Source: Escherichia coli
GTDB lineage: Bacteria > Pseudomonadota > Gammaproteobacteria > Enterobacterales > Enterobacteriaceae
Assembly: GCF_016903815.1 (NCBI RefSeq)
Contig: NZ_CP069973.1
Strand: one strand, 5' to 3'
DNA length: 64,000 bases
Shown: positions 11,917-27,744 of the stretch, one piece after another
Layout: each line of letters opens with the position of its first letter
Position numbering within the stretch: position 1 is the stretch's first letter
Made by a program: the position numbers and the translations under genes
The notes under the pieces: model-generated
Seen by the model: the letters and a program-made list of their open reading frames with translations, nothing else
Database searches by the model: none
What the model was told of the DNA's origin: nothing

Positions 11917-11955
11917 AAAAGAAACCTCCGCATTGCGGAGGTTTCGCCTTTTGAT
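11917..11955. terminator. Bidirectional rho-independent terminator between rmf and fabA
   Basis: Hairpin AAACCTCCGCATTGCGGAGGTTT flanked by A and T runs. Confidence 0.6.
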
Positions 11956-11972: not shown

Positions 11973-12491
11973 TCAGAAGGCAGACGTATCCTGGAACAGA
12001 CCGACTTTCAGGTCGCTGGCGGTATAGATCAGACGACCATCAACCAGCACTTCGCCATCCGCCAGGCCCATAATCAGACGACGGTTAACAATGCGTTTAA
12101 AGTGAATACGGTAGGTCACTTTTTTCGCTGTCGGCAGTACCTGACCAGTGAATTTCACTTCGCCAACGCCCAGCGCGCGGCCTTTACCTTCGCCGCCCAG
12201 CCAGCCGAGGTAGAACCCTACCAGCTGCCACATTGCGTCCAGGCCCAGACATCCTGGCATAACCGGATCACCAATGAAGTGGCATCCGAAGAACCACAGA
12301 TCCGGATTGATATCCAGTTCTGCTTCAACATACCCTTTGTCGAAGTTACCACCCGTTTCGGTCATTTTGACCACACGGTCCATCATCAGCATGTTCGGTG
12401 CTGGCAATTGCGGACCTTTAGCGCCAAACAGTTCACCGCGACCAGAGGCAAGAAGGTCTTCTTTTGTATAGGATTCGCGTTTATCTACCAT
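11973..12491 (-). CDS. fabA: 3-hydroxydecanoyl-ACP dehydratase/isomerase
   Basis: [40 protein letters not shown]… (172 aa); ORF-track ORF extends upstream of the real start. Confidence 0.95.
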
Positions 12492-12529
12492 GTTCTCTGT
12501 AAGCCTTATTTTATTGAAGCACGCAGGAT

Positions 12530-12565
12530 AGCTAACACGTGTACGCTGAACAAGTCCGATCAGTT
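12530..12565 (-). promoter_or_regulatory. fabA operator region: FabR-type palindrome plus FadR-type box
   Basis: AGCGTACACGTGTTAGCT palindrome and AACTGATCGGACTTGTTCAGCG in fabA orientation, just upstream of fabA start. Confidence 0.55.
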
Positions 12566-14320
12566 CGGAATAAACCAGTTCAGCCAACGTAATGGCCATG
12601 GAAAACGGTGACGTCCTTCCTGTTGCGATGCTTGCGCGATACGTTCCTGGATGGTTTGCATCAGCGTCGTTTGGCCTTCGCCATCCCACACCAGATTTAA
12701 TAATAACGGCAGTGCGTCAGTTACATCGTCTACTGCCCAGATGGTGAATTTGCCTTCTTCTACCGCTTTCACCAGTTCACTGTGAAGACTTAAATGGCGA
12801 ATGTTAGCAGTGGGGATAATGACACCTTGTTTCCCGGTTAACTCACGTTGCTGGCAAATAGCAAAGAAGCCTTCGATTTTCTCATTTAAACCACCGACCG
12901 GCTGGGCACGACCGAACTGATCGACTGAACCTGTGATAGCGATACTCTGATTCACCGGCACATCGGCGAGGGCGCTTATCAGGGCGCAGAGTTCAGCCAT
13001 CGAGGCACTATCGCCATCCACTTCACTGTATGACTGCTCAAATGTCAGCGATGCTGAGAAGGGGATCTGTTGCTCAAGCTGTAGTTCCGACATCAGGAAC
13101 GCCTGCATGATCATCATCCCTTTCGCATGGATATTGCCGCCAAGCTCCGCTTTGCGTTCGATGTCGGTGAATTCACCATCGCCAATATGCACAACGCAGC
13201 TAATGCGAGAAGGTTCGCCAAAAGCGCGTGGATGACCCGGAAATTCAATGACCGAAAGGGCGTTAATTTGCCCGATGCGTTCGCCTTCGGTTTCAATCAG
13301 GATTTGCTCCTGAAGAATCTCATCCTGCATGCGTTCAGCGAGGAAACCTTCGCGCCATTCACGCTGCTGTAGCATTAAGTTTAGCTGCTCGCCGGAGAAG
13401 GTGTCGCCATCGCACAGGGAGGCGACCTCTTTACACTGGCGGAGGATCCACTGCGGGCTAAGCGGAAGTGTTTCTTGTTCACCGGTGTAGCGTGCTGCTT
13501 CGCGGATAAGCACCGGCCAGGCATCCGCTCCCGGTGCAGGTAAGTGATTATGTCTGGCGGTCAATGTTACCCAGCGACACCACTGGCTTACTGACTCCGC
13601 ATCGACAATCTGCAGAGTATCTTCAAATTCGCTATAAATAGCCTGCTCTGAAAGCTCTGGTTCCATCTCCTGGAAATCAGCCAATGATTCGCGTTCGCCT
13701 ACCAGAATGACTTTCAGCTTCAATGGCATCGAAGGCACAGAGACGGGGAGAGGGCGCGACTCATCAAACGCAACCCAGTCAAAACGCTCGCGGTTAACGA
13801 TATTTTTCAGCCGCATCCACAGCAGAGGTTGCGCCAGCAGTGTACGCAAAGAGATGATGAGAATACCGCCATTTGCCTGATGCACCAGACCTGGCTGCAG
13901 GGTAATGTCGCCATTAAACTGGCGCAGGCAGCCAAAGAGTTGTTCCGCTTCTACCCAGTCGGCAGCGACAACTTGCGTTAAAGTCGCAAAATTATCATCT
14001 GCACTCACTGCGTTACGTAAGCGGATGGTGTGCCCGGAAACCTCATAGTGACCGCCCACCAGTTGGCCTGCATCGCTTTGTAGCGCACGCGCGGCATCGG
14101 CAATAAGATTCAGATACTCAGACTCTTCCGGGGCCTTCGCCAGCATAAAAGAGGAGGATGCTCGCGTATGCAGCAACTGCTCCATCGCAAATTGCAGTCG
14201 CGGTTGAGTATCACTGAATAAAGGATCGTTTTCGTCAATCAAATGTGGCTGAGCAAATATTTCCTGATAGCTATCGGTATCAGGAACCAGGTCACGCCAT
14301 GCAAGTTTCGTAATGGTCAA
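12560..14320 (-). CDS. ycbZ: Lon-protease-like protein YcbZ
   Basis: 586 aa ORF, conserved neighbour of fabA. Confidence 0.85.
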
Positions 14321-27656: not shown

Positions 27657-27744
27657 TGGCGGAAGCGCAGAGATTCGAACTCTGGAACCCTTTCGGGTCG
27701 CCGGTTTTCAAGACCGGTGCCTTCAACCGCTCGGCCACACTTCC
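27657..27744 (-). tRNA. serT: tRNA-Ser (anticodon UGA)
   Basis: Reverse complement GGAAGTGTGGCCGAGCGGTTGAAGGCACCGGTCTTGAAAACCGGCG…GCGCTTCCGCCA; long variable arm, 3' CCA encoded. Confidence 0.9.

Follow-up and report, generated by a model that had tools for sequence, protein, structure and literature searches.

The FadR–FabR dual operator upstream of fabA in a 64-kb stretch of Escherichia coli DNA: a probable assignment and its conservation

Introduction

The fabA promoter of Escherichia coli is a textbook case of a promoter that reads two lipid signals, the supply of acyl-CoA through FadR and the ratio of unsaturated to saturated acyl thioesters through FabR. FadR activates fabA and FabR represses it (PMC11226057; PMC7083825), and two fabA transcription starts have been described, one of them FadR-activated and the other FabR-repressed (PMC7083825; PMC11226057). 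In E. coli, FadR overlaps the -40 region and FabR the -10 region (PMC3462791). Long-chain acyl-CoA releases FadR (PMC4259882; PMC4804515), unsaturated thioesters strengthen the binding of FabR (PMC4804515), and deletion of fabR leads to higher fabA expression (PMC4537474; PMC11226057). Moreover, a 56-nt fabA probe, on which both the FadR site and the FabR palindrome are marked, has been used for FadR gel shifts (PMC4259882; PMC4537474).

Here we analyse a stretch of E. coli DNA of 64,000 nt (the window), in which a model reading the raw sequence had proposed that a FadR-like sequence is followed by a FabR-like sequence upstream of fabA. The stretch in question, AACTGATCGGACTTGTTCAGCGTACACGTGTTAGCT, is 36 nt long and is present exactly as the model wrote it, at window positions 12565..12530 of the minus strand, the strand of fabA. 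We conclude that it is very probably (about 95%) the dual operator within the fabA promoter of E. coli, with the evidence for binding and regulation taken from the literature. The analysis brings no new biology; its by-products are exact operator coordinates and predicted core promoter coordinates (Table 1), together with a quantification of how well the module is conserved.

Table 1. Window coordinates of the operators, the predicted core promoter and the neighbouring features.
Feature	Coordinates	Strand	Remarks
FadR operator, putative, 17 bp	12549..12565	-	5′ end over the ycbZ stop; 3′ end over the predicted -35
Single C separating the FadR and FabR sites	12548	-	
FabR operator, putative, 18-bp imperfect palindrome	12530..12547	-	14/18 self-complementary; core ACAnnTGT
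Predicted -35 hexamer TTGTTC of the FadR-dependent fabA promoter	12548..12553	-	Relaxed scan; 3/6 to TTGACA
Predicted -10 hexamer TATCCT	12525..12530	-	First base is the last T of the FabR palindrome
Predicted approximate +1 of the FadR-dependent promoter	12517..12519	-	6-8 nt past the -10; leader of 26-28 nt
fabA CDS, the regulated gene	12491..11973	-	172 aa
ycbZ CDS	12560..14320	-	Stop TGA at 12562..12560, within the FadR operator
Strong two-way terminator-like hairpin between convergent fabA and rmf	11921..11945		11-bp stem with 7 G-C pairs; T-runs on both strands

Results and Discussion

Identity of the locus

The dual-operator stretch is sited between ycbZ and fabA, both on the minus strand, with 38 nt between the end of the palindrome and the fabA ATG (12491). 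Over window positions 12440-12640 every base (201 nt) is identical to K-12 MG1655, the stretch itself corresponding to K-12 coordinates 1016509-1016544, and the genes follow the K-12 order pqiB-pqiC-rmf-fabA-ycbZ-matP. The surrounding 501 nt (12300-12800) were matched in 5,425 of the 5,426 complete E. coli genomes, in many of them at 100%. Moreover, the published 56-nt probe is window 12574..12519, and both operators are inside it. Judged from its sequence, then, the locus is the already known K-12 fabA regulatory region itself and not a mere relative. All defining features that a sequence can reveal were found here, while the binding of the two proteins rests on published work.

The stop codon of the upstream gene ycbZ and its last sense codon both fall inside the FadR operator (12560-12565), and thus the fabA control region begins inside ycbZ. 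Among the matches listed from the cross-species search given below, AACTGA forms the start of the 17-mer at 32 of the 70 fabA loci of other genomes. Conservation by way of ycbZ coding was considered as a cause of operator conservation, and can account for the first 6 nt only.

The FadR site

The putative FadR operator, AACTGATCGGACTTGTT, differs from the FadR consensus ANCTGGTCNGAYNTGTT by 1 mismatch and is the best match to it in the 64 kb. When the FadR 17-mer of fabB, GGCTGATCGGACTTGTT, was used as the query, the sole match in the window was again the fabA site (1 mismatch; 0.12 matches expected). We also scored 127,968 positions with a FadR weight matrix made from six published sites, the fabA site being left out. 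With fabB among the six, the fabA site ranks first of 127,968; when the matrix was restricted to the five fad-gene sites, it came 3rd in plus-strand orientation and 6th in fabA orientation. Therefore, the FadR match alone is good yet not unique in the 64 kb, whereas the pair of sites is unique. The fabA site carries A for a consensus G (CTGATC versus CTGGTC) and has a lower score on the fad-only matrix.

Counted from a predicted +1 at 12518, the FadR site would span about -47 to -31 and includes TTGTTC. Its sequence, its likely position near -40 over a weak -35 and its conservation at orthologous and paralogous targets all point to a FadR operator. The model had drawn the FadR-like string at 22 nt; the site itself holds, but not this extent, which runs 5 nt beyond the canonical 17-mer. 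It is owing to this over-extension that the two strings of the original prediction overlap by 4 nt (AGCG). A second FadR half-site was considered at the upstream repeat AACTGGT (12580..12574) and discarded, its conservation tracking the YcbZ C-terminus codons Asn-Trp-Phe, with variable third positions.

The FabR site

The adjoining putative FabR operator, AGCGTACACGTGTTAGCT, conforms to the rough FabR consensus AGCGTACANGTGTNNGCT, including the core ACAnnTGT. A search with the FabR 18-mer of fabB, allowing up to 3 mismatches, returned 12530-12547, at 3 mismatches, as the sole match in 64 kb, where 0.05 were expected and shuffled sequences gave 0/100. Similarly, the degenerate FabR core GCNTACANGTGTNNGC has one exact match in the window, at the fabA site; with 1-2 mismatches, its other matches in the window occur at chance level. 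The model had called this sequence a palindrome, and a FabR-like site it is, but an imperfect one, with only 14 of 18 positions self-matching. The palindrome would span about -29 to -12, which is the whole 17-nt spacer and the first T of the -10, and such a position over the core promoter is consistent with repression.

Conservation within and across species

Of 5,426 complete E. coli genomes, 5,387 carry without any change the 41-mer that takes in the two sites and the -10, whereas for the surrounding 501 nt there are 1,029 E. coli genomes that are only 95-99% identical. Therefore, the control region is more tightly constrained than its neighbourhood.

Across species, we searched for the composite FadR+FabR pattern CTGRTCNGANNTGTTNNGCNTACANGTGTNNGCT (49 bits) in one genome per species, amounting to 298 Gb, in which about 0.001 chance matches are expected. 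At least 120 matches were obtained, and for 119 of these a fabA or fabB gene begins 32-69 nt downstream, in every case on the same strand. Among the matches listed, 70 are found at a FabA homologue (32-69 nt upstream) and 49 at a FabB homologue (41-62 nt upstream), the one exception lying 85 nt from a contig end. The hosts among the matches listed are many Enterobacterales, Shewanella, Parashewanella and, from the Vibrionaceae, Photobacterium, Salinivibrio, Grimontia and Enterovibrio.

These counts bear on the idea that the stretch resembles both consensus sequences by chance and has no function. The several equally good matches of the fad-gene-only matrix within the 64 kb would be in keeping with that idea, as would the chance rate at which the FabR core is matched with 1-2 mismatches. 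However, the pair of sites has no second occurrence in the window, their sequence is identical to tested K-12 DNA, the composite stands at least 119 times ahead of fabA or fabB against an expectation of about 0.001, and it is near-invariant in E. coli. We give chance resemblance no credence.

Since the cross-species set was chosen by the pattern, the specified bases and the 1-nt spacing are conserved in it by construction, and only the free positions provide independent evidence. Two such positions, A2 and T6 of the -10, were left free by the search pattern, and the hexamer beginning with the final T of the palindrome reads TAnnnT at each of the 117 analysable fabA and fabB loci among the matches listed. 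Moreover, the first T of the -35, also free in the pattern, is invariant in 117/117 promoters among the matches listed. Information content drops in both flanks of the composite (matches listed).

A further idea is that the composite forms a rigid module, made up of a 17-mer, 1 nt and an 18-mer, with the -35 in the first site and the -10 starting from the last base of the second, in which FadR, FabR and RNA polymerase interact or compete in a manner that depends on the exact spacing. If true, this would exceed the usual view of independent activation and repression. We regard it as very unlikely; the 1-nt spacing was preset by the search pattern, so that the result speaks for that spacing and other spacings fall outside its scope.

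Among the matches listed, Shewanella and Vibrionaceae genomes match the composite at fabA only, and Photorhabdus, Providencia, Tatumella, Pantoea, Mixta and Yersinia aldovae match it at fabB only, absences being unreliable in both cases. The fabA-only matches in Shewanella fit the report that fabB of this genus lacks a FadR site (PMC4537474).

The core promoter

A relaxed promoter scan returned TTGTTC (12553..12548), a spacer of 17 nt and TATCCT (12530..12525). A strict sigma-70 scan found no promoter at the locus, as is expected of a promoter that needs an activator. The reporter described for fabA ends at +27 from the annotated start (PMC11226057), and with +1 at 12517-12519 this end coincides with the ATG at 12491 or falls immediately before it. 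The predicted start and geometry thus agree with that reporter and with the operator positions given in PMC3462791. The -35, -10 and +1 given here, as well as occlusion of the promoter by FabR, are predictions from sequence.

A published G>A mutation within the FabR site made the promoter more active, about equally so in the wild type and in fadR and fabR mutants, and its authors assigned it to a second promoter (PMC11226057). The change is given as -19G>A and, depending on the numbering convention, both G 12538 and G 12536 fit. With either change the second base of a possible -10 would become A, CGTGTT turning into CATGTT or TGTTAG into TATTAG. As the effect is independent of FabR, the palindrome would also carry elements of a second, weak promoter. 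It could then be argued that the palindrome is conserved chiefly as core-promoter sequence, that is as a spacer and part of a second weak promoter, and that FabR has a secondary or minor role at fabA. This argument draws on the same mutation, which acts regardless of fadR or fabR status, and on a ChIP-chip experiment in Salmonella that missed fabA (PMC4804515). Against it, FabR occupancy of the Salmonella fabA promoter was found in vivo by ChIP-qPCR (PMC4804515), and loss of fabR raises fabA expression. Furthermore, the palindrome is also present at fabB, within different flanks, and in distant genera, and a promoter spacer is not normally conserved as a dyad. A core-promoter role and FabR binding are compatible, and we consider it very unlikely that the former is the chief reason for conservation. 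The reading of the palindrome as a FabR operator is kept.

A sigma-70-like pair, TTAGCT-16 nt-TAAAAT (12535..12508; 8/12), was considered as a promoter and not adopted, with a leader of only ~10 nt and no source found in its support. This pair scores better than the accepted promoter, and the right half of the FabR palindrome holds its -35. Two further reported elements were mapped to the window. The CpxR footprint, at -287 to -255 from the ATG (PMC7083825), maps to GAACTGGTGAAAGCGGTAGAAGAAGGCAAATTC in ycbZ (12746-12778), with a possible GTAGA-N5-GCAAA box. An acid-induced third fabA start at -203 (PMC7083825) maps to 12694, with TATTAT ahead of it at 12705..12700.

Inverted repeats as RNA

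Instead of binding proteins as DNA, the inverted repeats might work in the ycbZ transcript, folding its 3′ end into a hairpin that terminates or stabilises it. The ycbZ gene does end at 12560, within the operator region, and a perfect 7-nt inverted repeat, GCTGAAC/GTTCAGC (12545-12551 and 12578-12584), flanks the FadR site and is paired in the minimum-energy fold. However, the RNA fold is no better than that of shuffled sequences (z = -1.43; 17 of 200 shuffles fold equally well), no terminator-like site, T-run or Rfam family match was found at the operator region, and the composite also occurs ahead of fabB and, in genomes whose upstream sequence differs, ahead of fabA. A ycbZ terminator or RNA hairpin was rejected on the z-score and the two negative searches, and we rate an RNA function of the repeats as extremely improbable. 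Elsewhere in the window, unrelated to the operators, Rfam matches were obtained for the cspA thermoregulator (38289-38711), the PyrD leader (721-794) and one tRNA (27660-27744).

A model of fabA control

For the dual operator, the following mechanism is proposed. Ligand-free FadR, a GntR-family protein, would bind AACTGATCGGACTTGTT over the weak -35 TTGTTC and, placed at about -40, would help RNA polymerase to use an intrinsically poor promoter. When exogenous fatty acids are present, long-chain acyl-CoA would free FadR, and activation would be lost. FabR, of the TetR family, would bind the abutting palindrome AGCGTACACGTGTTAGCT, with unsaturated acyl thioesters strengthening its binding. Bound FabR would exclude RNA polymerase because the palindrome makes up the whole spacer and the first base of the -10. 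The two sites would jointly tune fabA output to the supply of fatty acids and their saturation state, and fabB is under the same FadR-FabR module.

Taken together, K-12 identity, the published probe, the literature, promoter anatomy and conservation agree with the dual control of unsaturated fatty acid synthesis that the model had proposed, and a true regulatory site was thus recognisable by a model from raw sequence. Its remark that this control is legible directly in the DNA was overstated, as the sites can be recognised only by a reader who already knows the two operators. The comparison with footprint coordinates that the model had proposed as a check was made by way of probe sequences and secondary sources.

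Comparison with known systems

In Pseudomonas aeruginosa a FabR-type palindrome, bound by the FabR homologue DesT, is also located upstream of fabA in fabAB. The order differs from that at the present locus, with the DesT site upstream of a separate 30-bp activator element and without a FadR site (PMC3462791). The FadR operators of the fad genes (fadBA, fadL, fadD and others) belong to the same 17-bp sequence family and are sites of the same protein. However, at the fad genes the FadR site is over or after the core promoter and represses, whereas at fabA the site is at about -40 and activates.

In the K-12 fabB promoter the two sites stand in the same order, again 1 nt apart (GGCTGATCGGACTTGTT-C-GGCGTACAAGTGTACGCT), and TATTGT comes next as a TAnnnT -10. 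Between fabB and fabA there are differences at 1 of 17 positions in the FadR site and at 3-4 of 18 in the FabR site, and the fabB palindrome (AGCGTACAAGTGTACGCT, the 18-mer used as query) is nearer to perfect than that of fabA. The distance to the start codon is 41-62 nt at fabB against mostly 32-41 nt at fabA (matches listed), and published work describes FadR as dominant at fabA and FabR as dominant at fabB. The closest known system is the K-12 fabA promoter, with its FadR site and its FabR (YijC) site. It has the same sequence over the 201 nt compared and the same gene order pqiC-rmf-fabA-ycbZ; no difference was detected, and it is the same locus in another strain or the same one.
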